Source: Candidatus Latescibacterota bacterium
Lineage (GTDB): Bacteria > Latescibacterota > UBA2968
Direction: 5' to 3'
Assembly (NCBI GenBank): GCA_965222605.1
Contig: OZ244960.1
Coordinates: forward strand, 5,289,329 to 5,321,328
Length of the DNA stretch: 32,000 bases
Part shown: one piece after another, positions 955-15,878 of the stretch
How the letters are laid out: each line of letters begins with the position of its first letter
How positions within the stretch are numbered: the stretch's first letter is position 1
The notes under the pieces: generated by a model
What the model saw: only the letters and a program-made list of their open reading frames with translations
What the model was told of the DNA's origin: nothing
Databases searched by the model: none
Program-made: the position numbers and the translations under genes

Positions 955-1030
955 TGGCTCCGGCGGTAGGACTCGAACCTACGACCCAGTGGTTAACAGC
1001 CACTTGCTCTGCCAGCTGAGCTACGCCGGA
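955..1030 (-). tRNA. tRNA-Asn (anticodon GTT), CCA encoded
   Basis: The reverse complement reads TCCGGCGTAGCTCAGCTGGCAGAGCAAGTGGCTGTTAACCACTGGGTCGTAGGTTCGAGTCCTACCGCCGGAGCCA. It folds as a cloverleaf with a 7-bp acceptor stem, anticodon loop CTGTTAA and T-loop GGTTCGAGTCC. Confidence 0.95.
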
Positions 1031-1054
1031 ACGTAATATTTCCAATAGCGATGA

Positions 1055-1083
1055 AATCTACTGGAAGTGAATATCAGTGTCAA
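1055..1083 (-). promoter_or_regulatory. Sigma-70-like promoter for tRNA-Asn
   Basis: The minus strand reads TTGACA (1083-1078), a 17-nt spacer, then TAGATT (1060-1055). This lies about 25 nt upstream of the mature tRNA 5' end. Confidence 0.4.
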
Positions 1084-1136
1084 GCGCAATTTTTAATCCT
1101 TTGATTTATCAGTGTCTGAATATCAGGGCATTCCTC

Positions 1137-1165
1137 TTGACATCCCTCCGGTGAACATCTATGTT
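1137..1165 (+). promoter_or_regulatory. Sigma-70-like promoter for the rpiB-like gene
   Basis: TTGACA (1137-1142), a 17-nt spacer, then TATGTT (1160-1165). It is divergent from the tRNA-Asn promoter. Confidence 0.35.
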
Positions 1166-1239
1166 TTCAATTCTTAGCGGTTAGCAGTTCGTTCGTCCAA
1201 TCTCCCCAGCCCCCAGTCCCTATCCTCTTGCTATCTATT

Positions 1240-1962
1240 ATGCCAGATGAGAAACTGATACAGCGGATTGTTGCCGAAGTTGTGCGGCGGTTGAAGGCGC
1301 TGGAGGGGGTCGCGGTATCTGAACCGATTGACCCACCAGTGAGTCTGGTGACGGAAGATCTGGTCAAATCTGCAATCAAACGCGGTGGTGATGCGGTTTA
1401 TGTGACGCCCAACGCGATTGTGACGCCGTTGGCACGGGATTTGATACGACGGCAGAAAGTGCGTCTGGTCGTGGCTGATGATGAGGCGGTGATTCAAGAC
1501 CCACAGAAATCGAGTGTATTAGCTATTGGTGCAGATCACAAAGGATTCGAGCTGAAGAAACAGATTGCGCTTATGTTGCAAGATGCCGGGCGGGAAGTGA
1601 TTGATTGTGGCGTACATAGTCCGCAAGAAGTATCTTATGTCGGTGTGGCAAAAACGGTGGCCGACGTTGTTCTGGAAAAAAATTTGATGACGGGTATTGT
1701 GATTGATGGGGGAGGAACGGGAACTGCTCTCGTTGCGAATAAAATAAAGGAGATTCGCGCTGTTTCGTGTCACGATGTGACATCGGCCAAATTTGCCCGG
1801 GCCCATGTGGATGCCAATATTTTGTGTCTCGGTGTGGGTGTGGTGGGGGATACCGTGGCAAAAGAGATTGTTGCGACGTGGTTGAGCACCCCATTTGAAG
1901 GTGGGCAATATGCCGCGCGTGTTCGGGAAATTGGTGAGGTGGAGGGTGGGAATGGGGATTGA
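1240..1962 (+). CDS. rpiB: RpiB/LacA/LacB-family sugar-phosphate isomerase with about 92-aa N-terminal extension
   Basis: The core from residue ~93 (VLAIGADHKGFELK...GIVIDGGGTGTALVANK...AVSCHD...ANILCLG) matches ribose-5-phosphate isomerase B motifs. ATG at 1240 is preferred over the TTG at 1228 used in the ORF track. No clear RBS. Confidence 0.8.
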   Translation: MPDEKLIQRIVAEVVRRLKALEGVAVSEPIDPPVSLVTEDLVKSAIKRGGDAVYVTPNAIVTPLARDLIRRQKVRLVVADDEAVIQDPQKSSVLAIGADHKGFELKKQIALMLQDAGREVIDCGVHSPQEVSYVGVAKTVADVVLEKNLMTGIVIDGGGTGTALVANKIKEIRAVSCHDVTSAKFARAHVDANILCLGVGVVGDTVAKEIVATWLSTPFEGGQYAARVREIGEVEGGNGD

Positions 1963-1992
1963 GCTGAGTGTCCTTCTAATCAGGAGATATCT

Positions 1993-2763
1993 ATGCTTTC
2001 ACAAGAGCAACTCGCGCAATATGACCGAGATGGGTATGTGCTGGTGTCGGGATTAATTCCAGAAGAGACAATTGCCAATGCGGAAGCTGCGATGTGGTCT
2101 GTGCTCGGGATGGTTCGGGATGATCCGGCTTCGTGGTCTCCTTTGCCAGACAAAACAGATGGGGTGACAACAAATGCCAACCAGGGGGTGATTGAACATT
2201 TTGGGGTTCAAGATCCCGCGTTGCTGGCTTGTTGTACGCCCGCGTTTTACGAGGCGCAGAGCCAACTGGTTCGGGAGAATGCAGATGCATTTCACTGTCA
2301 GAAGCCACAGCCTGAGGCAGTGTGGGCACGCAGTGTATTTCCGGTTTCGAAAGGCTGGGATTATCTCAATGGGCACGTCGATGGTGGACATCGACCTTTC
2401 AATGTTTTTCCGGGGTCATTCCGGGTCTCCTCTCTGACTTATCTCGATTCTGGTGTTGCACAAGGTGGTGGGACCGCGGTCTGGCCAGGGTCGCATCGGA
2501 AGTTCAGCGAGATGGCAGTGCAGGATCCTGACCGGTTTCGAATGCTGTCGGATTTTGCGAAACCTCAACAAAGGTTCGGTCTGGGAGAGCCGATTGAGTT
2601 GAGGCCGTCCCGAGGAGAGGTACTGTTTTTTCATTATCTGTTAGTACACTGTGGATCTCTCAATACAAGCAATAAACCGCGTTTTGCCCTCCGCTGGATG
2701 TGTACCTGTGACGCATGTCGCATCTGGGAAAAACACGGCAGGTGGAATATCTGGATGCCCTGA
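1993..2763 (+). CDS. Phytanoyl-CoA dioxygenase (PhyH) family Fe(II)/2-oxoglutarate oxygenase
   Basis: AGGAG RBS. The N-terminus LSQEQLAQYDRDGYVLVSGLI is typical of PhyH. Also present are HVDGG (HxD), WPGSHRKF and a distal His in HCGSLN. Confidence 0.8.
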   Translation: MLSQEQLAQYDRDGYVLVSGLIPEETIANAEAAMWSVLGMVRDDPASWSPLPDKTDGVTTNANQGVIEHFGVQDPALLACCTPAFYEAQSQLVRENADAFHCQKPQPEAVWARSVFPVSKGWDYLNGHVDGGHRPFNVFPGSFRVSSLTYLDSGVAQGGGTAVWPGSHRKFSEMAVQDPDRFRMLSDFAKPQQRFGLGEPIELRPSRGEVLFFHYLLVHCGSLNTSNKPRFALRWMCTCDACRIWEKHGRWNIWMP

Positions 2764-2863
2764 TGTTGATGGTTGACTCTGTGTGGGGAAACCCGTATAT
2801 TTTTTTCTCTATAACCAGTGTTGTTTTCGCGGGGTATCCGTGCTGGATGACGACCTGACAGGC

Positions 2864-3298
2864 ATGAAATTTGCGCTCGAAGAAGCCCGCGTGGCGGCAA
2901 GCGAACATGAAGTGCCTATTGGCGCTGTTGTGATGCACAATGGCGAGGTGATCGCACGAGATCACAATCGCATTGTCCAGCGAAATGATCCCACAGCGCA
3001 TGCCGAAATGCTCGTTATTGGGCAGGCAACAAAAAAGTTGGGCGTTCGGTGGCTAAATAACTGCGTGCTTTACGCAACACTGGAACCCTGTGCGATGTGT
3101 GCAGGTGCTATGGTGCTTGCCCGATTGTCCCGGTTGGTCTTTGGAGCTTGCGATCCCAAAACCGGGGCCTGCGGATCCCTGAGAAATATTGTGGAAGATA
3201 CCCGCCTGAATCATCGCATGGATGTGCGCAGAGGCGTTTTAGAAGATGCGTGTGGTCAGGTGTTGCGGGCGTTTTTTCAAACTTTGCGGGAAAAATAA
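2864..3298 (+). CDS. tadA: tRNA adenosine(34) deaminase
   Basis: CDA zinc motifs HAEM and PCAMCAGA are present, and the MKFALEEA...VPIGAVV architecture is typical of TadA. ATG at 2864 is preferred; GTG 2840 is an alternative. The ORF-track start at 2783 adds non-homologous residues. Confidence 0.9.
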   Translation: MKFALEEARVAASEHEVPIGAVVMHNGEVIARDHNRIVQRNDPTAHAEMLVIGQATKKLGVRWLNNCVLYATLEPCAMCAGAMVLARLSRLVFGACDPKTGACGSLRNIVEDTRLNHRMDVRRGVLEDACGQVLRAFFQTLREK

Positions 3299-3303
3299 AT
3301 ATT

Positions 3304-3393
<90 letters not shown>

Positions 3394-3466
3394 AAAACAA
3401 GAGCGTATCAACAATCAGCGCACAAGTGTGTGAGGAAGCCGATAGCTGACGGCTTACAGCTATATT

Positions 3467-3556
<90 letters not shown>

Positions 3557-3575
3557 AAAATATCACGAGGTTGTT

Positions 3576-3947
3576 ATGCCGCATCCTATTCGCATTACAG
3601 TTGGCGATATTGAACTCGACGCCGAGTTGAACGATTCGCAAACAGCAGGCAAGATTCGTGAGGTTTTACCGCTGGATTGTTCGTTTAATACCTGGGGCGA
3701 TGAGATTTACTTTTCAATTCCCGTTGAAGCAGGCCCCGAAGATGCATGTGAAACGGTGGCGTTAAACGACCTTGGATATTGGCCGCCGGGTCATGCGTTT
3801 TGCATTTTTTACGGTCAGACCCCAGCCAGTCATGGAGATGAAATTCGTCCGGCAAGTCCCGTCAATATTATTGGACGGGTGCTGGGTGATGCTACGGTGC
3901 TCAAGTCCGTTTCGGGAGTACGCAACATCGTGGTTGAAGCCGTTTAG
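3576..3947 (+). CDS. Cyclophilin-like fold protein (TM1367-type, Cyclophil_like family)
   Basis: NTWGDEIYFSIPV...LGYWPPGHAFCIFYGQTP...IRPASPVNIIGRV closely parallels my recollection of Thermotoga TM1367 (NTWGEEIYFSTPV...VGYWPPGKALCLFFGKTP...IQPASAVNVIGKI). ATG at 3576 lies after an acgagg RBS. The ORF-track start at 3465 lies inside the tRNA. Confidence 0.85.
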   Translation: MPHPIRITVGDIELDAELNDSQTAGKIREVLPLDCSFNTWGDEIYFSIPVEAGPEDACETVALNDLGYWPPGHAFCIFYGQTPASHGDEIRPASPVNIIGRVLGDATVLKSVSGVRNIVVEAV

Positions 3948-3948
3948 G

Positions 3949-4025
<77 letters not shown>

Positions 4026-6554: not shown

Positions 6555-7148
6555 ATGGCATCAGAAGCCATTGAAAAATTGATTGCCGCTTTAAATCGGT
6601 TGCCCGGAATCGGCGCCAAATCAGCACGGCGTCTCGCGCTGGAGATGCTGACATGGGATACGGATGAGGTGCGCGAACTCGCCGATTTGATGGTGGATGT
6701 CAAGACCCGGGTGCGGCGGTGCTCAATTTGTTTTAATTTGACAGAGATTGAACCGTGTTCTGTGTGCAGCGATACGCGTCGAGATCGTTCCAGTGTGATG
6801 GTGATTGATTTTATCGGCGATCTTTTGGCATTTGAGCGCACCGGGCTTTATCGGGGGCTTTATCACGTACTGGACGGGCGAATTTCGCCTCTGGATGGTA
6901 TTGGTCCAGAAGACTTGAATATTCCCCAATTGCTCCACCGCTTGCGCCAGGGGGAAATTCGAGAAGTGATTCTCGCCAACGGTCCAACCGTAGAGGGCGA
7001 TGCCACGGCACAATATCTGTCTCAATGTTTGACTCCGTTTGAAGTATCTGTCACACAAATTGCGCGCGGGTTGCCGGTGGGCAGTGATCTCGCCCTGGCC
7101 GATCAAGTGACATTGTCGCGTGCGCTGGAAGGCCGTCGGGAGTATTAA
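6555..7148 (+). CDS. recR: Recombination protein RecR
   Basis: HhH motif LPGIGAKSARRLA, C4 zinc finger CSICFNLTEIEPCSVC and a Toprim region. ATG 6555 follows GGAG. Confidence 0.92.
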   Translation: MASEAIEKLIAALNRLPGIGAKSARRLALEMLTWDTDEVRELADLMVDVKTRVRRCSICFNLTEIEPCSVCSDTRRDRSSVMVIDFIGDLLAFERTGLYRGLYHVLDGRISPLDGIGPEDLNIPQLLHRLRQGEIREVILANGPTVEGDATAQYLSQCLTPFEVSVTQIARGLPVGSDLALADQVTLSRALEGRREY

Positions 7149-8418: not shown

Positions 8419-8494
8419 GTGTTACACCTTGTGCGGTGCAGGAGACGAGAAGGGCTGCGCCGTGATCCCAAACCTTTTGTAAGGAGAGATGCAG

Positions 8495-9556
8495 ATGACC
8501 AAACGCAAAATTAAAGGTACGCAACAAACCGATGGCAAGCAGCAAGCAATTGAGAACGCAATTGCCCAAATCGAAAAACAATTTGGACAGGGGGCAATTA
8601 TGCGCCTGGGGGGCGAGGATGGCCAACCCCGTGTCGCAGAAGTTATTCCGACGGGTTCTTTGAGCCTGGATGTTGCACTGGGCGCTGGTGGTGTTCCCCA
8701 GGGAAGAGTGGTTGAAATATATGGCCCTGAAGGGTCGGGCAAGACGACCTTGATTTTGCACATCATTGCCGAGGCGCAAAAGCGCGGTGGAGCAGCGGCT
8801 TTTATCGATGCAGAACACGCATTGAATGTGGATTTGGCCGAACGCCTGGGCGTGGATATCGAAAATTTATTGATCGCCCAGCCCGATACGGGGGAAGAAG
8901 CACTCGAAATTACAGATACTCTCGTGCGTAGCGGTGCTTTTGGGGTCGTGGCTTTAGACTCTGTGGCTGCTCTGGTGCCGCGTGCCGAACTCGAAGGTGA
9001 TATGGGTGATTCCCACATGGGCTTGCACGCCCGTCTGATGTCTCAGGCTCTGCGCAAACTCATCGGATCAATCGGCCAGTCTAAAACCTGTGTGATCTTT
9101 GCCAATCAGATTCGCATGAAGATAGGCGTGATGTTTGGCAATCCCGAAACGACCACCGGTGGCCGTGCGCTTCCGTTTTACGCATCGGTGCGTATGGATA
9201 TTCGGCGCATTCGTTCTATTAAAGACGGGCAAGAGATCGTTGGCAATCGCGTTCGGATTCGCGTGGTGAAAAACAAGATGGCACCGCCTTTTAAGGAATG
9301 TGAAGTTGATCTGATGTTCGGAGAGGGCATTTCCAAAGAGGGCAGTCTGATCGATATGGCCGAATTGCACGGCATCATCAAGAAAAGTGGCACCTGGTTC
9401 TCTTATGGCGATGACCGGCTTGGACAGGGACGCGAAAATGTCAAGCACTACCTGAAAGAGAACGCGAGTTTGTCTGCAAAAATCGAACGCGAGGTGCGCG
9501 AGGCTGTGGGGCTTCCCGTCGATAAGGTATCTGAACTCGAAGAAGAACCTGTATAA
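8495..9556 (+). CDS. recA: Recombinase RecA
   Basis: Walker [20 protein letters not shown] and loop regions identify RecA unambiguously. ATG 8495 gives an 8-nt spacing to AAGGAG. ATG 8489 (ORF track) is too close to the RBS but possible. Confidence 0.95.
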
Positions 9557-9564
9557 TACGTTGT

Positions 9565-9593
9565 TGACATCTCAACTTTCTCTAATTTAATTC
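9565..9593 (+). promoter_or_regulatory. Possible sigma-70-like promoter for the repeat-protein gene
   Basis: TTGACA (9565-9570) is followed 14-18 nt later by an AT-rich TAATTTAATT tract offering several weak -10 hexamers. Confidence 0.3.
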
Positions 9594-9676
9594 ATAACTG
9601 ATGTTACGCATGCAGAAAAACTGGAAATAATTCCGCCTTTTTTCTTGTCCCATGCCTTCAGAGAAATGAGGGAAGG

Positions 9677-12628
9677 ATGTTGCAAAAATTTTTGCACAAA
9701 AAAATGCCGTTTATTGCTGCTTTTGCGTTGTTGCTATGCGTGGGTCAAGCCTCTGCTGTTTCCAATGCAAATAATGCTACGGCTACTGTTACGCAGTCTG
9801 CAGATCTCAACGGCGATGGGACGGTTGGCTTTGCGGATTTTTTGTTATTTGCGAGTCTGTTTGGGGCAAATCAAGGCGATGACAGGTATGATGTCCGGGC
9901 TGATTTGGACGGGGATGGTGCGATAGGTTTTGGCGATTTTCTGATTTTTGCCAATGCCTTTGGCACATCCGGCTCTGGTGGTGGCGGTGGCAGCCCTGAT
10001 CTCATTGTTATAGCACCTTCGGTGAGCGATACCACGCTGACGCCTGAGCAGATGTTCACGCTGAATGCGACGGTACGCAACCATGGGAGTGGACAAGCCG
10101 CTGAGACGACGCTGACGTATTACCATTCGACCGACGCGACGATCTCGACGGATGATACGGAGGTTGGCACGGATGCCATAGGCAGTCTCAATGCGGGCGG
10201 CACGAGTGACCAGTCGATTGACTTGAATGCGCCATCGAGTGCCGGCACGTACTATTACGGTGCCTGCGTAGCGAGCGTCAGTGGTGAGAGCAATACGGAT
10301 AACAATTGCTCAGATGGGATGCCTGTCACGGTCAGCGATGGCGGGGAAGGTGGTCAAGGGGGTGGTGAGACGTCCTTCGATCTGGATAACAACAGCAATC
10401 CGCAGGATATCATCTATGTCAACGACCGATTCTATGTGGTTGATCGGGAGGATGTAAGGGTCTATGGGTACGGGAGTGACGGTCAGCGAGATTCGGGTGG
10501 AGACTTCTATCTGGCTGGCAGTGATCCGAGGAGTATTACCTATGCCAACGACCGATTCTATGTGGTTGATGACGAGGATAATAAGGTCTATGCGTACACG
10601 AGTTCTGGGCAGCGAGATTCGGCAGCAGACTTCGATCTAGCTATAAATGATCCGAGAGGTATTACTTATGCCAACGACCGATTCTATGTGGCTGATGACG
10701 AGAATAATAAGGTCTATGGGTATGGGAGTGACGGTCAGCGAGATTCGGCAGCAGACTTCGATCTGGCTATAAGTGATCCGAGAGGTATTACTTATGCCAA
10801 CGACCGATTCTATGTGGTTAATGACGGGGATGATAAGGTCTATGGGTATGGGAGTGACGGTCAGCGAGATTCGGGTGCGGACTTCAATCTGGCTACTGGT
10901 GACCCCAGGGGTATCACCCATGCCAACAACCAATTCTATGTGGTTGATTTCTGGAATGATAAGGTCTATGGGTACGGGAGCGACGGGCGGCGTGATTCGG
11001 GTGCAGACTTCGGTCTGCATAGCAACAACACTCCGCAGGATATCACCTATGCCAACGACCTATTTTATGTGCTTGATGTGGATGATATAAAGGTCTATGG
11101 TTACGGGAGTAACGGGCGGCGTGATTCGGGTGCAGACTTCGATCTGGCTAACAGTGATCCGTTTGGTATCATCTATGCCAACAATCTATTTTATGTGCTT
11201 GATCCCTCGGATGTAAAGATCTATGGGTACATGAGTTCTGGTCTGCGTGATTCAACAGCAGACTTCAATCTGGCTGGCAACAACGATGATCCGTCGGGTA
11301 TCACCTATGCCAACAATCAATTCTATGTGATTGATACCTCAGATGAAAAGGTTTATGTGTACACGAGTTCTGGGCAGCGTGTTCCGACTGCAGACTTCAA
11401 TCTGGCTAATAGTTCTCCGTCGGGTATCATCTATGCCAACAACCTATTCTATGTGGTTGATTCTGCAGATGAAAAGGTCTATGTGTACACGAGTTCTGGG
11501 CAGCGTGTTGCGGCTGCAGACTTCGATCTGGCTATCAGTTCTCCGACGGGTGTCGCCTATGCCAACGACCAATTCTATGTGCTTGATGTGGAAGATGCAA
11601 AGGTCTATTGGTACACGAGTCCCGACCCAGATCCTGATCTAATTGTTATATCGCCTTCGGTGAGCAATAGCAGCCCGAATGCCGACGAGTCCTTCAGTTT
11701 GAGCGCTGCGGTTCGCAATCAGGGCGCGGGTTCTTCGGCTGCGACGTCCTTGCGCTACTACCTCTCGACCGATGATACGATCACAACGAGTGATACAGAG
11801 GCTGGCACGGGTGCCATAGGCAGTCTCAATGCGGGAGATACGAGTGACCAGTCAATTGACTTGAATGCGCCATCGAGTGTGGGGATATACTACTACGGCG
11901 CGTGTGTCCAAAGCGTCATTGGGGAGAGCGATACCGATAACAACTGCTCGAATGGGGTGCGTATCTCAACTGCAGACTTTGCTCTGGATAGCGACAACGT
12001 TGATCCGGAAGGTATCACCTATGCCAACAACCGATTCTATGTGCTTGATTCCAGGGATACAAAGGTTTATGCGTACACGAGTTCCGGTCAGCGCGATGCG
12101 GCAGCAGACTTCGATCTGGATAGCAACAACAGTGGTCCGGAAGGTATCGTCTATGCCAACAACCGATTCTATGTGGTTGATCGGGGAAATGTGTTTGATC
12201 GAGGGGATGAAAAGGTTTATGCGTACACGAGTTCCGGTCAGCGTGATGCGGCAGCAGACTTCAATCTGGATAGCGGTGCTCCGGCGAGTATTACCTATGC
12301 CAACGAGCGATTCTATGTGGCCGATTTTTCGAATGCAAAGGTTTATGGCTACACGAGTTCCGGTCAGCGCGATGCGGCAGCAGACTTCGACCTGGATAGC
12401 GACAACAGTGATCCGTTTGGTATCGTCTATGCCAACGAGCGATTCTATGTGGTTGATAACGAGGACGGTCAGGTTTATGCGTACACGAGTTCCGGTCAGC
12501 GTGATTCGGATGCAGACTTCAATGTGACGGGTAGTGATCCGTTTGGTATCATCTATGTGAACGACATATTCTATGTGGTTGATAGCGGGGATGAAAAGGT
12601 TTATGCGTACACGAGTTCTGGGCAATAA
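9677..12628 (+). CDS. Secreted multi-repeat protein: signal peptide, dockerin/EF-hand-like pair, 2 x [CARDB-like domain + NHL-like beta-propeller blades]
   Basis: The signal peptide is MLQKFLHKKMPFIAAFALLLCVGQASA. It is followed by two DxNGDG/DxDGDG Ca-loop segments (DLNGDGTVGFADFLLFASLFG, DLDGDGAIGFGDFLIFANAFG) and a Gly linker. The first CARDB-like module spans about 9995-10318 (PDLIV..PSVS...RN.G.G...YY.STD.TI...D...G...). Ten tandem blades follow, then a second CARDB-like module (about 11633-11955) and five more blades. Confidence 0.85.
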   Translation: MLQKFLHKKMPFIAAFALLLCVGQASAVSNANNATATVTQSADLNGDGTVGFADFLLFASLFGANQGDDRYDVRADLDGDGAIGFGDFLIFANAFGTSGSGGGGGSPDLIVIAPSVSDTTLTPEQMFTLNATVRNHGSGQAAETTLTYYHSTDATISTDDTEVGTDAIGSLNAGGTSDQSIDLNAPSSAGTYYYGACVASVSGESNTDNNCSDGMPVTVSDGGEGGQGGGETSFDLDNNSNPQDIIYVNDRFYVVDREDVRVYGYGSDGQRDSGGDFYLAGSDPRSITYANDRFYVVDDEDNKVYAYTSSGQRDSAADFDLAINDPRGITYANDRFYVADDENNKVYGYGSDGQRDSAADFDLAISDPRGITYANDRFYVVNDGDDKVYGYGSDGQRDSGADFNLATGDPRGITHANNQFYVVDFWNDKVYGYGSDGRRDSGADFGLHSNNTPQDITYANDLFYVLDVDDIKVYGYGSNGRRDSGADFDLANSDPFGIIYANNLFYVLDPSDVKIYGYMSSGLRDSTADFNLAGNNDDPSGITYANNQFYVIDTSDEKVYVYTSSGQRVPTADFNLANSSPSGIIYANNLFYVVDSADEKVYVYTSSGQRVAAADFDLAISSPTGVAYANDQFYVLDVEDAKVYWYTSPDPDPDLIVISPSVSNSSPNADESFSLSAAVRNQGAGSSAATSLRYYLSTDDTITTSDTEAGTGAIGSLNAGDTSDQSIDLNAPSSVGIYYYGACVQSVIGESDTDNNCSNGVRISTADFALDSDNVDPEGITYANNRFYVLDSRDTKVYAYTSSGQRDAAADFDLDSNNSGPEGIVYANNRFYVVDRGNVFDRGDEKVYAYTSSGQRDAAADFNLDSGAPASITYANERFYVADFSNAKVYGYTSSGQRDAAADFDLDSDNSDPFGIVYANERFYVVDNEDGQVYAYTSSGQRDSDADFNVTGSDPFGIIYVNDIFYVVDSGDEKVYAYTSSGQ
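10376..11620 (+). repeat. Coding tandem repeat block 1 (10 units, about 126-nt period)
   Basis: The consensus unit is DF(D/N)LA..DP.GITYAN(D/N).FYV(V/L)D..D.KVY(G/A)Y(G/T)S.GQRDS.A. Adjacent units share exact strings. For example, the 44-mer tgatccgagaggtattacttatgccaacgaccgattctatgtgg occurs at 10648 and 10774, and the 40-mer aaggtctatgggtatgggagtgacggtcagcgagattcgg at 10709 and 10835. Confidence 0.9.
11974..12625 (+). repeat. Coding tandem repeat block 2 (5 units of the same blade family)
   Basis: The units are DF.LDS.N..P.GI.YAN.RFYV.D....KVYAYTSSGQRDAAA. One unit carries an 8-aa insertion (RGNVFDRG). Confidence 0.9.
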
Positions 12629-12669
12629 CGCACGGGGAACATGAGAAAGAAATCGCATTTTAGGCTTTG

Positions 12670-12719
12670 ACAACAGAGTGGGTTTGCCTATTTTAATACC
12701 TGCTCTGTTGTTCTTTTTT
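12670..12719 (+). terminator. Rho-independent terminator after the repeat-protein gene
   Basis: The stem acaacagag (12670-12678) with ctctgttgt (12703-12711) is extendable by 5 more pairs (2 G-U). It is followed by tctttttt (12712-12719). Confidence 0.6.
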
Positions 12720-12733
12720 AGCGAGAAATTATC

Positions 12734-13255
12734 GTGAAATTAGAGTCTGCCACATCCACGCTGTTTGAGACTGATGAAGCCGCTGAAAAGGCCAAGGCGT
12801 ATGCCTTGCGCTTGCTGAGCAATCGGGCTTATACAAAAAAGGAGATTTGCGACAAACTCGCTGGACGAGGTTATGAGCAAGGTGCGATTGAACAGACTCT
12901 CTCGATGCTCAAGCGTCTCAATTTAATTGATGATGTGTTGTTTGCGCGTCAATTTGTCGAGCAACGGTTGCGATTGCGGCCTTCTGGCCGGGTGGCACTT
13001 GTGCGCGATCTTGTGCATCGGGGTGTTCCGACTGAGATAATCGATCGCGTTTTGGACGATGTTTTGGCAGATATTGACATTGAAGATGTCGCACTCGATT
13101 TGCTGATGAGCAGGGCAAATCGCTACCGGGGATTGTCTCGTGAGAAAGCTCTGGGAAGGATGTTCGGTTTTTTAGGGCGCAGGGGATTTGAGGTTTCGGT
13201 TGCGCGAGATGTCGCTCATGAAGTTTGGTCTAAAATAGAAAATGAAGAAGGTTAA
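12734..13255 (+). CDS. recX: Regulatory protein RecX
   Basis: AYALRLLSNRAYTKKEICDKLAGRGYEQGAIEQTLSMLKRLNLIDDVLFARQFV shows the three-helix repeat pattern of RecX. GTG start, with alaS 7 nt downstream. Confidence 0.85.
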   Translation: MKLESATSTLFETDEAAEKAKAYALRLLSNRAYTKKEICDKLAGRGYEQGAIEQTLSMLKRLNLIDDVLFARQFVEQRLRLRPSGRVALVRDLVHRGVPTEIIDRVLDDVLADIDIEDVALDLLMSRANRYRGLSREKALGRMFGFLGRRGFEVSVARDVAHEVWSKIENEEG

Positions 13256-13262
13256 ATAAAAG

Positions 13263-15878
13263 ATGAAGACTGCTGTACAAATTCGCGAAGAGTTTCAGGC
13301 ATTTTTTGAATCCAAAGGCCATACGCGGGTTCAAAGTGCGCCCTTAGTGCTGCAAGACGATCCCACATTGTTGTTTACCAATGCGGGTATGAATCAGTTT
13401 AAGGATGTGTTTTTAGGCACCGGACGTCGGCCTTATTCACGGGCGGTTGATACGCAGAAGTGTTTGCGGGTATCGGGCAAACACAACGACCTGGAAGAAG
13501 TGGGATTCAGCCCCAACCATCACACGTTTTTTGAGATGTTGGGCAACTGGTCTTTTGGCGACTACTTTAAAAAAGAAGCCATCGCATGGGCGTGGGAGTT
13601 GCTCACAGATGTGTGGCAACTGCCAAAAGATCGCATGTGGGCAACGGTGTTTGGCGGCGACGAGGCCGATGGTCTGGAGGCCGATGTGCAGGCCGAAAAT
13701 CTCTGGACGCGCGTGACGGATTTGTCCGCCAATCGCGTGCTGCGCCTGGGCAAAAAAGATAATTTCTGGGAGATGGGGAATACCGGTCCTTGTGGCCCGT
13801 GTTCCGAAATACACTTTTATCTCGGCGATGATCCATCAAAGCAGGATGCCGTGCCGGATTTAGACTCCGAGGATTATGTCGAAATCTGGAATCTGGTTTT
13901 TATTCAGTACAATCGCGATGCCGATGGCATATTGCTGCCTTTGCCAGATCAGCACGTGGATACAGGGATGGGATTTGAGCGGATTTGTTCAATTTTGCAG
14001 GGTGTACAAACCACTTATGATACGGATGTGTTTTTGCCAATTATTGGGGCGATCGGCGAGATTACCCGAAAACCCTATCACAAAGATCACTGGGTGCCCA
14101 TGCGCGTGATTGCCGATCATGTGCGTACACTCGCATTTGCAATCGCAGATGGGGCGCTGCCATCCAATGCAGGTCGAGGCTATGTTTTGCGGCGGATTTT
14201 GCGCCGTGCCGCGCGGTTTGGACGCACGCTGGGGATGCATGAGCCGTTTATTTTTCGACTCATAGAGACAGTAGTCCGCGAAATGAGTGTTGCATTTCCC
14301 GAAGTGGCAGAAAAACGCGATTATATTGCACGGGTGATTCGGTCTGAGGAAGAAGGATTTGGCAAAACACTCGATCGCGGGCTGGAAATTTTTGACGCAA
14401 TGCAGGCGAAAGGACATATTTCTGGGGCAGATGCTTTTCAGTTGTACGATACCTATGGTTTTCCCATTGATTTGACGCGGTTAATGGCAGCCGAAAAAGG
14501 TATCGAGGTGGATGAGGAGGGCTTTGAAGCGCAAATGGCGGCACAGCAGATGCGATCTCGTTTAGCAGCTTCTTTTACAGCAGGGGCCCCAACATTTAGT
14601 GCCGGACTATCTATAGAACATTCGGAATTTGTGGGATACGAAACACTTGCGTCCGATTCGCGCATTGTCGCCTGTCAACCTGCACTGGATGAGATGTTGG
14701 ATATTTATCTGGATATAACGCCATTTTATGCCGAGTCTGGCGGGCAGGTTGGAGATACGGGCGAACTTGTGGGAGCAGGCATGCGCTTTGAAGTAGCGAC
14801 TACGTTCAGGGAAGGAGAAGCAGTTGTTCATCGCGGTCGCCTGTGCGATGGGCAGGTCGAAGAATTGATTGATGCGGACGTGAAGGCGCGTGTCGATGCT
14901 GAAACCCGTTTGAATACGGCGCGCAATCACACAGCCACGCATCTGATGCATCGCGCTTTGCGGCAGGTATTGGGTGATCATGTACACCAGGCCGGTTCGC
15001 TGGTTGCCCCAGATCGATTGCGGTTTGATTTTACGCATTTTGAAGGTGTAACGCCCACGCAATTAGACGATGTTGTGGGAATCGTAAATGACGTGGTCAG
15101 GAGAGATTGGGCTGTCGATATTTCTTTTGATAAATTGGATCGCGCTGTGGAAATGGGTGCGATGATGTTGTTTAGCGAAAAATATGGCGATGTGGTGCGC
15201 ATGGTGCAGGTGGGGGATTTTAGCCTGGAGTTGTGCGGTGGTACGCATGTGCAAAGCACCGGGCAAATCGGGTTGTTTCAACTCACGCAAGAGACGGGTA
15301 CCGCAGCCGGCGTGCGGCGTATTGAGGCGGTCACCGGGCCGGGAGCAGAAGCCCTTGTGAGAGAACAAAAGAAAATTTTGGCCGATCTCGCGTCGCAACT
15401 GAGTGCGCCAACATCAGAATTGTCGGATAAGGTTGCGCACCTGATCGCGCACAATCGCGAACTCGAGCGCGAGTTGCAGAGCTTGCGACGAGAGCAGGCC
15501 GGTTCAGAGATGGATATGCTGGTGAGCAGTGCTCTAAATGTAAATGGGTTGCGCGTTGTGGCCGCCGAGGTCTCGCCGCCCGATATGGACGGGTTTCGCA
15601 CAATGGGCGACGGTTTGCGCGATGCCCTGGGCACAGGGGGCGTTGGCGTGATTGGTGCGAATTTAAATGGCAAGGCATCGCTTCTCGCGGTAGTGACAGA
15701 CGATCTGATCGATCGGGGTGTGGAGGCTGGCAATGTTGTCAAAGCCATCGCACAGATCGTGGGTGGCGGCGGTGGTGGTCGCCCCCATCTGGCGCAGGCC
15801 GGTGGCAAGTTCCCGGAAAAGATCGGAGAAGCTCTGGCGCGAGTGCCCGACATCATTCGGGCACAGGTGGAAGGGTAA
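13263..15878 (+). CDS. alaS: Alanine--tRNA ligase
   Basis: FTNAGMNQFK, HHTFFEMLGNWSFGDYFK, the editing-domain HTATHL and the C-terminal GGGGGRPHLAQAGG (DHHA1) are present over 871 aa. Confidence 0.96.
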   Translation: MKTAVQIREEFQAFFESKGHTRVQSAPLVLQDDPTLLFTNAGMNQFKDVFLGTGRRPYSRAVDTQKCLRVSGKHNDLEEVGFSPNHHTFFEMLGNWSFGDYFKKEAIAWAWELLTDVWQLPKDRMWATVFGGDEADGLEADVQAENLWTRVTDLSANRVLRLGKKDNFWEMGNTGPCGPCSEIHFYLGDDPSKQDAVPDLDSEDYVEIWNLVFIQYNRDADGILLPLPDQHVDTGMGFERICSILQGVQTTYDTDVFLPIIGAIGEITRKPYHKDHWVPMRVIADHVRTLAFAIADGALPSNAGRGYVLRRILRRAARFGRTLGMHEPFIFRLIETVVREMSVAFPEVAEKRDYIARVIRSEEEGFGKTLDRGLEIFDAMQAKGHISGADAFQLYDTYGFPIDLTRLMAAEKGIEVDEEGFEAQMAAQQMRSRLAASFTAGAPTFSAGLSIEHSEFVGYETLASDSRIVACQPALDEMLDIYLDITPFYAESGGQVGDTGELVGAGMRFEVATTFREGEAVVHRGRLCDGQVEELIDADVKARVDAETRLNTARNHTATHLMHRALRQVLGDHVHQAGSLVAPDRLRFDFTHFEGVTPTQLDDVVGIVNDVVRRDWAVDISFDKLDRAVEMGAMMLFSEKYGDVVRMVQVGDFSLELCGGTHVQSTGQIGLFQLTQETGTAAGVRRIEAVTGPGAEALVREQKKILADLASQLSAPTSELSDKVAHLIAHNRELERELQSLRREQAGSEMDMLVSSALNVNGLRVVAAEVSPPDMDGFRTMGDGLRDALGTGGVGVIGANLNGKASLLAVVTDDLIDRGVEAGNVVKAIAQIVGGGGGGRPHLAQAGGKFPEKIGEALARVPDIIRAQVEG

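Follow-up and report, generated by a model that had tools for sequence, protein, structure and literature searches.

Why should a gene for a predicted secreted repeat protein lie between recA and recX? The question is raised by a stretch of 32,000 nt from a Candidatus Latescibacterota bacterium (contig OZ244960.1, positions 5,289,329 to 5,321,328; the window hereafter), whose plus strand carries, in this order, recR, pgsA, pgpA, recA, an open reading frame (ORF) for a 983-aa protein, recX, alaS, and pcrB. An earlier note on this DNA had recognized that one gene parts recA from recX, which is borne out by the ORF at 9677-12628 and by the Pfam assignments of its neighbors. The comparison of related loci and the modeling of the protein lead us to an answer that we consider probable, namely that a single insertion after recA was followed by vertical inheritance of a gene for a three-propeller surface-binding protein, and that its position in this locus is accidental. 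The features needed for the first part of the argument are these:

9557-12645, plus strand: inserted DNA, approximate extent (about 3.09 kb), from the comparison of occupied and empty loci
9557-9592, plus strand: conserved block at the 5′ edge of the insert (TACGTTGTTGACATCTCAACTTTCTCTAATTTAATT), nearly invariant in occupied loci and absent from empty sites
9677-12628, plus strand: coding sequence of the 983-aa secreted repeat protein, with an ORF that is intact in 14 of 15 orthologues
12654-12719, plus strand: ancestral recA-recX spacer element, outside the insert, present in occupied and empty loci
8489-9556, plus strand: recA, which flanks the insertion upstream (Pfam RecA at 428 bits, and RecA_C)
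12734-13255, plus strand: recX, the downstream flank (Pfam RecX_HTH1, HTH2, and HTH3)
13263-15878, plus strand: alaS, 7 nt 3′ of recX (Pfam tRNA-synt_2c, 639 bits)

A RecX-based scan that kept one genome per species yielded 13 Latescibacterota species represented by metagenome-assembled genomes (MAGs; L002-L014). All 13 carry a full-length orthologue between recA and recX at 72-88% amino acid identity; their flanking proteins are 84-99% identical to those of the window, and recA is 90-95% identical across 13 related genomes. RecX homologues at 67-74% identity led to the contigs L016-L019. The first of these, more distant than L002-L014, contains a 981-aa orthologue with identical junction sequences. 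In L017, L018, and L019, the site is empty: recX follows recA after 95 bp, no remnant of the gene is visible, and the synteny is that of the window (dnaX, ybaB, recR, pgsA, pgpA, recA, recX, alaS, pcrB, pfkB, HPr, ptsI, metK). Because recA and recX lie 95 bp apart in these relatives within an otherwise identical gene order, the gene in the window is an insertion. Remoter relatives came from a scan of metagenomes: L020, L021, and L029, whose RecX is 55%, 48%, and 45% identical, respectively, and others more distant. In most of them recA adjoins recX (L020, L021, L029, L024, L027, and L028), as it does in L015, and L021 shows the order recA-recX-alaS-pcrB. The comparison of the recA-recX interval, which the earlier note had proposed as a check, thus found the site occupied in L002-L014 and L016 and empty in L017-L019, and the suggestion that the gene could be an insertion is upheld both by these empty sites and by the adjacency in the remoter relatives. 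The same note had set its view against the case of a gene held at one site throughout a broad clade with a characterized function; the site is indeed shared by at least 15 lineages, but the clade is narrow and the gene is uncharacterized.

Occupied and empty loci also delimit the insert. Its left junction lies directly 3′ of the recA stop codon and its right junction about 12-25 nt past the ORF stop, so that the ancestral spacer, GAG...GAAA[C/T]CGCATTTT, picks up again around 12643-12654; between these points are a short 5′ region and one ORF. By the divergence of the flanking genes at nonsynonymous and synonymous sites (dN and dS), the window is closer to L016 than to L017, which fits a single gain, and the parsimonious reading is one old insertion in an ancestor that L016 shares with the window clade. 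On this reading, one event put ∼3.1 kb directly 3′ of the recA stop, upstream of an existing hairpin/T-tract, in the ancestor of a Latescibacterota clade made up of the window, the 13 species genomes, and L016. The gene has since been inherited vertically and kept open, under purifying selection weaker than that on its neighbors, and it ends at the presumed former terminator of recA. Its position at the recA locus would be the accident of a tolerated insertion site, and we see no sign of a role in DNA repair.

The hairpin/T-tract had been interpreted differently in the earlier note, which described the gene as self-contained, with its own stem-loop/T-tract terminator at 12670-12719. The structure exists (12669-12719) but is not the gene's own, since empty sites and L020 have it too, as part of the ancestral spacer. 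It consists of a 15-bp stem (12669-12683 paired with 12698-12712), a 14-nt loop, and a T-tract at 12713-12719 (UCUUUUUU), with a fold energy of −22.3 kcal/mol (z = −3.8); it escaped a consensus scanner because that program accepts loops of at most 8 nt. Given that the hairpin/T-tract is found in the empty sites, the insertion between the recA stop and the element brought no terminator with it. The alignment of the ORF-recX spacers contains the almost invariant stretch CGCATTTTAGGCTTTGACAACAGAGTGGGTTTGCCTATTTTAATACC[T/C]GCTCTGTTGTTCTTTTTT, which stands directly after recA in empty sites, and a 47-nt core of the element is identical in 16 loci, the empty sites included. Relative to L017 (9921-9986), the element has 1 change in 66 nt, set against a dS of 0.55-0.96 in the flanking genes. 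In L020 (about 372-420), the left arm and loop are retained and the right arm is rewritten yet complementary. RNAalifold on six lineages keeps 15 of 15 pairs, with one compensatory double change from A-U to G-C and two G-U/G-C changes. A stable hairpin, a directly adjoining U-tract, and a conserved structure are the sequence hallmarks of an intrinsic terminator, and 12669-12719 has all three, making it a good candidate for one. A search of Rfam over 9400-13400 gave no match for the spacer element and only a chance hit to a long noncoding RNA (E = 0.42).

The same element may also start transcription. A promoter-like TTGACA (12667) and TATTTT (12689), separated by 16 nt, overlap the hairpin such that the −35 hexamer falls in the left arm and the −10 hexamer in the loop. 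A transcript that starts inside the element lacks the left arm and therefore would not terminate. We infer a dual element, which would act as a terminator for transcripts arriving from upstream and as a promoter for recX-alaS; more broadly, it may be a terminator/promoter or an operator through which recX-alaS are controlled, and recX-alaS probably keep a promoter of their own embedded in the hairpin. The recA-(terminator)-recX units of E. coli and mycobacteria resemble the ancestral state seen here in having a hairpin/T-tract between recA and recX. They differ from the present locus in that here a 3-kb unrelated gene stands between recA and the hairpin, and the hairpin overlaps a promoter-like site. 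That recA and recX are co-transcribed, and that RecX has to be kept in balance with RecA, is described in PMC3062782 and, as cited there, in Pages et al. (2003). Two modest points follow for the study of this locus. The occupied and empty loci form a clean pair, which shows that a 3-kb accessory gene can be accommodated in the recA-recX-alaS unit between a stop codon and a terminator, with the downstream control element left intact. In addition, the spacer element (∼66 nt) is conserved far beyond neutral expectation and is a better target for regulatory work than the inserted gene.

On the 5′ side of the insert, the signals are less definite. The earlier note had pointed to a promoter-like TTGACA at 9565. 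The hexamer, at 9564-9569, lies inside a block that is kept in 12 of 12 aligned occupied loci while the rest of the spacer varies; its position is shifted by one, it has no acceptable −10 hexamer, and it goes unreported by a consensus promoter scan. The block is possibly a promoter or another cis element. Neither this site nor the one in the hairpin fits the Bacteroidetes-type promoter pattern TTG-N19-21-TAnnTTT. The note's statement that no terminator follows recA agrees with our scan of the recA-ORF interval, in which no terminator-like site was found. RNA structure in this spacer amounts to a weak pairing (−8 kcal/mol) between a T-tract and the ribosome-binding region with one covarying pair, and is unconvincing. 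The inserted gene may be served by a promoter of its own or by read-through from recA. Promoter-like hits in the region number 20 where shuffled sequences predict 5.7, but this excess is an artifact, because the minus-strand hits recur with the blade repeat described below (ATTCTA from R-F-Y codons). These antisense sigma-70-like hits fall every 126 nt inside the ORF (window 10152-12597, minus strand), for example at 10836, 10962, 11349, 11475, and 11601.

Read-through would give the gene's position a meaning that an accident does not. If the gene were co-transcribed with recA and induced by DNA damage, it might have been retained at this site for that reason. The lack of a terminator-like site between recA and the ORF would suit such SOS coupling, as would the location of the sole strong hairpin/T-tract after the ORF, the stability of the position in at least 15 lineages, and the co-transcription of recA with downstream genes documented elsewhere (PMC3062782). 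However, the conserved TTGACA block right after the recA stop is specific to the insert and suggests independent control, a stable position is equally expected of any fixed neutral insertion, and relatives such as P0077 (see below) reside at unrelated loci among other surface proteins. We consider this explanation unlikely. A further version, which strikes us as a little less plausible again, would have the insertion sever recA from its terminator, so that the surface protein rides on the recA transcript and is induced by damage, with recX-alaS driven by the promoter in the hairpin. Were it true, a symbiont would link genotoxic stress to the remodeling of its surface, and the hairpin would be a switch that works both ways, stopping transcripts that arrive from upstream and starting those of the genes that follow.

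The product of the inserted gene was examined as well. An exact-sequence look-up of the 983-aa protein matched no record. The protein is built in the order signal peptide, dockerin-like Ca-loop pair, CARDB, 10 blades, CARDB, and 5 blades, as the earlier note had read it (signal peptide, dockerin/EF-hand loops, two CARDB modules, and NHL-like blades); Pfam, phmmer, and the blade anchors show that reading to be accurate. The parts are as follows:

9677-9757, plus strand: signal peptide (aa 1-27, ending ...QASA before V), read by eye from the sequence and conserved in orthologues
9797-9970, plus strand: dockerin-like Ca-binding loop pair (aa 41-98; DLNGDGTVGFADF and DLDGDGAIGFGDF), from phmmer against the PDB dockerin 2y3n_B
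9992-10336, plus strand: CARDB domain 1 (aa 106-220), with Pfam CARDB and DUF11 stretches and an all-beta AlphaFold2 (AF2) model with a predicted local distance difference test score (pLDDT) around 90
10373-10984, plus strand: predicted propeller 1, blades 1-5 (aa 233-436), from blade anchors and a low-confidence AF2 linker, 437-443, before propeller 2
11006-11620, plus strand: predicted propeller 2, blades 6-10 (aa 444-648), with blades 6 and 1 as reciprocal best DNA matches
11630-11965, plus strand: CARDB domain 2 (aa 652-763), containing the best Pfam CARDB stretch, residues 653-758
11972-12625, plus strand: predicted propeller 3, blades 11-15 (aa 766-983), from the AF2 model and Foldseek

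By visual judgment, the N-terminus, MLQKFLHKK-MPFIAAFALLLCVG-QASA before V, is a Sec signal peptide, and AF2 places a low-confidence helix at residues 2-25. Residues 41-100 match the solved dockerin 2y3n_B with E = 1.4e-7 (phmmer against PDB). The hidden Markov model searches that had been recommended for this protein put CARDB and NHL above their cut-offs and Dockerin_1 slightly below: CARDB (PF07705) scores 76.8 bits against 22.7 in two stretches (aa about 106-220 and 653-758), and NHL (PF01436) scores 73.5 bits against 20, so the protein belongs to both families by sequence. Weaker Pfam matches are DUF6242, DUF5128, and SdiA-regulated. The contractile-injection-system protein CIS12 (NF053768 in NCBIfam) was rejected, with 88 bits against a cut-off of 860 and matches to blade-like stretches alone. 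Among the Pfam families at E ≤ 1 there is no C-terminal sorting domain (type 9 secretion system tail, LPXTG, or PEP-CTERM), and the protein ends in its last blade (...VYAYTSSGQ). No candidate cohesin partner for the dockerin-like module was seen within the 32-kb window.

The blades number 15, as FYV-anchored repeats with a spacing of 42-48 aa arranged 10 + 5, in agreement with the 10 + 5 blades of about 42 aa counted earlier. The open point was how such an array folds. An AF2 model of aa 766-983, made from an alignment of the window segments plus database matches, reached a pLDDT of 95.1 and a predicted TM-score (pTM) of 0.92. When it was searched with Foldseek, six-bladed NHL domains came out on top (E about 1e-12, TMq 0.65-0.71), and the best mutual TM-score was obtained with the five-bladed glutaminyl cyclase 3mbr (TMq 0.76 / TMt 0.71 over 238 columns). 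The full-length model has a pLDDT of 85.9 and a pTM of 0.39, the latter as expected for a beads-on-a-string protein. Its low-confidence segments are the signal-peptide region, two Gly linkers, and residues 437-443; this last is the sole low-confidence gap within the 10-blade array and coincides exactly with the boundary of blades 5 and 6. As DNA, blades 1 and 6 match each other best (83% vs about 67% for other blades), and both begin with NNxxPQDI; identity between blades reaches 92% in the DNA. Five-blade proteins with a signal peptide, with or without the dockerin/EF-hand pair, also occur free-standing (P0159, P0164, P0174, P0176, and P0188). Units of five blades are indicated by the 10 + 5 anchors, the linker at 437-443, these free-standing homologues, and the fact that 3mbr gives the best mutual TM-score. 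As to the structure prediction suggested earlier, the 15 NHL-like blades are thus most likely arranged as three propellers of five blades each. Every unit opens with an (S/D)FxL strand and the end of the protein has no such strand, a pattern compatible with completion of the last blade by the N-terminal strand of the same unit. We conclude that the predicted architecture is signal peptide, dockerin-like module, CARDB, propeller, propeller, CARDB, propeller.

Such an architecture most likely serves multivalent binding at the surface. The protein would be exported and, by means of its Ca-dependent dockerin-like module, anchored to the cell surface or to a partner, and three propellers of near-identical blades would be displayed as multivalent binding surfaces in an adhesin-like or lectin-like manner. 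It would then be part of the repeat-protein repertoire of host-associated, probably sponge-associated, Latescibacterota. Latescibacterota are rich in eukaryotic-like repeats (PMC8163846), and MAGs of sponge-associated Latescibacterota are reported to encode repeat proteins of this eukaryotic-like sort, NHL among them (PMC12993501); the likeness to our protein lies in the NHL class, and both studies count domains without describing this gene or locus. Compared with the NHL propellers of TRIM2/3/71, Brat, and Lin41 (PF01436), the protein has blade sequences over the Pfam cut-off and its best Foldseek E value. However, solved NHL domains are single, six-bladed, ∼275 aa in size, and part of cytoplasmic eukaryotic proteins, whereas the units here have five blades rather than six (∼215 aa), come three to a protein, and are predicted to be secreted together with CARDB and dockerin-like modules. 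Non-cellulosomal dockerin-bearing proteins have a duplicated Ca-binding loop-helix pair to which the putative pair of our protein corresponds, but the module here is N-terminal, has no glycoside hydrolase attached, and scores below the Pfam cut-off.

Several observations weigh against the joint reading of insertion, inheritance, and surface binding. The Dockerin_1 (PF00404) score of 20.0 bits is slightly under the 22.9 cut-off, although two loops are visible. Closure of the modeled propellers is judged from pTM, the TM-score to 3mbr, and the strand pattern. The orthologue in L010 has an in-frame TAG at codon 200 (L010 7655-7657; GGT TAG AGC, with GAG in the others), and in L009 and L010, both short-read MAGs, the first array has 9 blades (9 + 5); the gene may be dispensable in some lineages, or these two assemblies may have collapsed. 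Finally, binding is preferred over catalysis on the grounds of architecture, and propeller enzymes (virginiamycin B lyase and glutaminyl cyclase) are among the Foldseek matches as well.

This last point opens the way to a different function, in which the propellers would be scaffold-displayed enzymes of a lyase, lactonase, or cyclase-like kind instead of binding modules. Beyond the Foldseek matches, it can appeal to weak Pfam matches to SGL and Arylesterase and to the Vgb_lyase family in relatives. These matches are below or near their cut-offs, however, and reflect the shape of the blades. Blades so nearly identical fit repeated equivalent sites and not one asymmetric active site, and three tandem copies flanked by Ig-like CARDB follow the grammar of adhesins. 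The likeness to 3mbr is one of blade number and size; the sequences are 13% identical, the blades of 3mbr, an enzyme, differ from one another, and shared active-site residues are not in evidence. We regard display of enzymes as quite improbable.

The five-blade module turns out to be widespread. A profile of it, run against 1.84 billion cluster representatives, recovered 13109, 4301, and 925 representatives at E ≤ 1e-3, 1e-10, and 1e-30, respectively. This blades-only search was needed because multi-CARDB proteins, which match about 12% of the query, swamped the search with the whole protein. Many relatives are 2000-6300 aa long with several ∼215-aa stretches, and the unit is combined in them with CARDB, He_PIG, and Ig-like domains. 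P0077 is the sole whole-protein match with the full grammar (signal peptide, dockerin, and repeated CARDB plus blades), at 53% identity; its gene stands among genes for BACON, He_PIG, WD40, and CARDB surface proteins and not near recA. Metagenomic surface proteins such as P0077, P0214, and P0221 thus have modules in common with our protein, and there are hundreds to thousands of five-blade relatives, but they differ in having variable module numbers, with He_PIG/Ig-like domains replacing or joining CARDB; none was seen beside recA, and they are uncharacterized. The earlier note could match the architecture to no described family. It is right that no curated family covers it, but P0077 has the same grammar and the five-blade relatives run to thousands. 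The module and its grammar are common in metagenomes, uncurated, and uncharacterized, and they mark a large family of surface proteins that lack annotation and have a five-bladed NHL-like propeller as their building block, a unit that domain libraries detect only as scattered NHL repeats. The gene in the window is an ordinary accessory gene for a predicted surface protein, fixed at a site that is unusual yet tolerates it, and it does not overturn current understanding.

A gene of this kind could also be a mobile cassette that is still moving, or a genomic islet of recent horizontal origin. Five-blade/CARDB relatives do occur on contigs assigned to other phyla (P0166, Gammaproteobacteria; P0154 and P0170, Gemmatimonadota), and the dS of the gene relative to L016 is below that of most flanks, which could reflect later exchange. 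The insert itself argues otherwise. It holds a single ORF, with no integrase or transposase, no target-site or terminal repeats at the junctions, and no atypical composition; the GC content at third codon positions (GC3) of the gene is 0.525, against 0.47-0.57 in its neighbors, and the overall GC, whose profile is flat, equals theirs. The junctions are the same in all occupied lineages, and the dS of the gene tracks that of the flanks within the clade. The dN/dS ratio of the inserted gene is 0.30-0.49, that of its neighbors 0.02-0.35. Taken together, GC3, dS, and dN/dS therefore describe an old, vertically inherited gene that is under constraint and evolves faster than its neighbors. As for the Gemmatimonadota-labeled contigs, they are short and carry close matches of the gene (P0170, 79% identical), and a binning error is likely because P0127, a RecX with 91% identity, bears the same phylum label. 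Recent acquisition or present mobility is in our view very unlikely.

Least probable of all is an ancestral presence of the gene in the whole group, followed by precise deletion wherever recA now adjoins recX: the close empty-site lineage does come from one sample only (ERZ19489113), but the remoter relatives named above are empty as well, the 95-bp empty spacer holds no remnant, L020 has the spacer element and no gene, no outgroup with the gene or a decayed remnant at the site was seen, and several independent clean deletions would be required.

Some minor observations remain. The proteins P0127, P0154, and P0170 are labeled Gemmatimonadetes/Gemmatimonadota in NCBI, which is likely a matter of mis-binning or of outdated taxonomy for Latescibacterota contigs. 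For the comparison with L016 (window 9677-12628 / L016 6950-9895), the dS of the inserted gene is 0.30 and that of most flanks 0.38-0.69; later gene exchange at the locus, alignment bias driven by the repeats, and codon constraint are all possible causes. Four tRNA genes at 955-4025 of the window, upstream of the dnaX-recR block, show nothing unusual (Asn-GTT on the minus strand; Ser-CGA, Ser-GGA, and Ala-CGC on the plus strand). In L005, the recA-ORF spacer contains an extra insertion of ∼192 bp (6616-6834), which has short inverted repeats inside, is bounded by a 17-27-nt direct repeat, TTATTAAATGAT[G/T]TTACG, and could be a small mobile or duplicated element.

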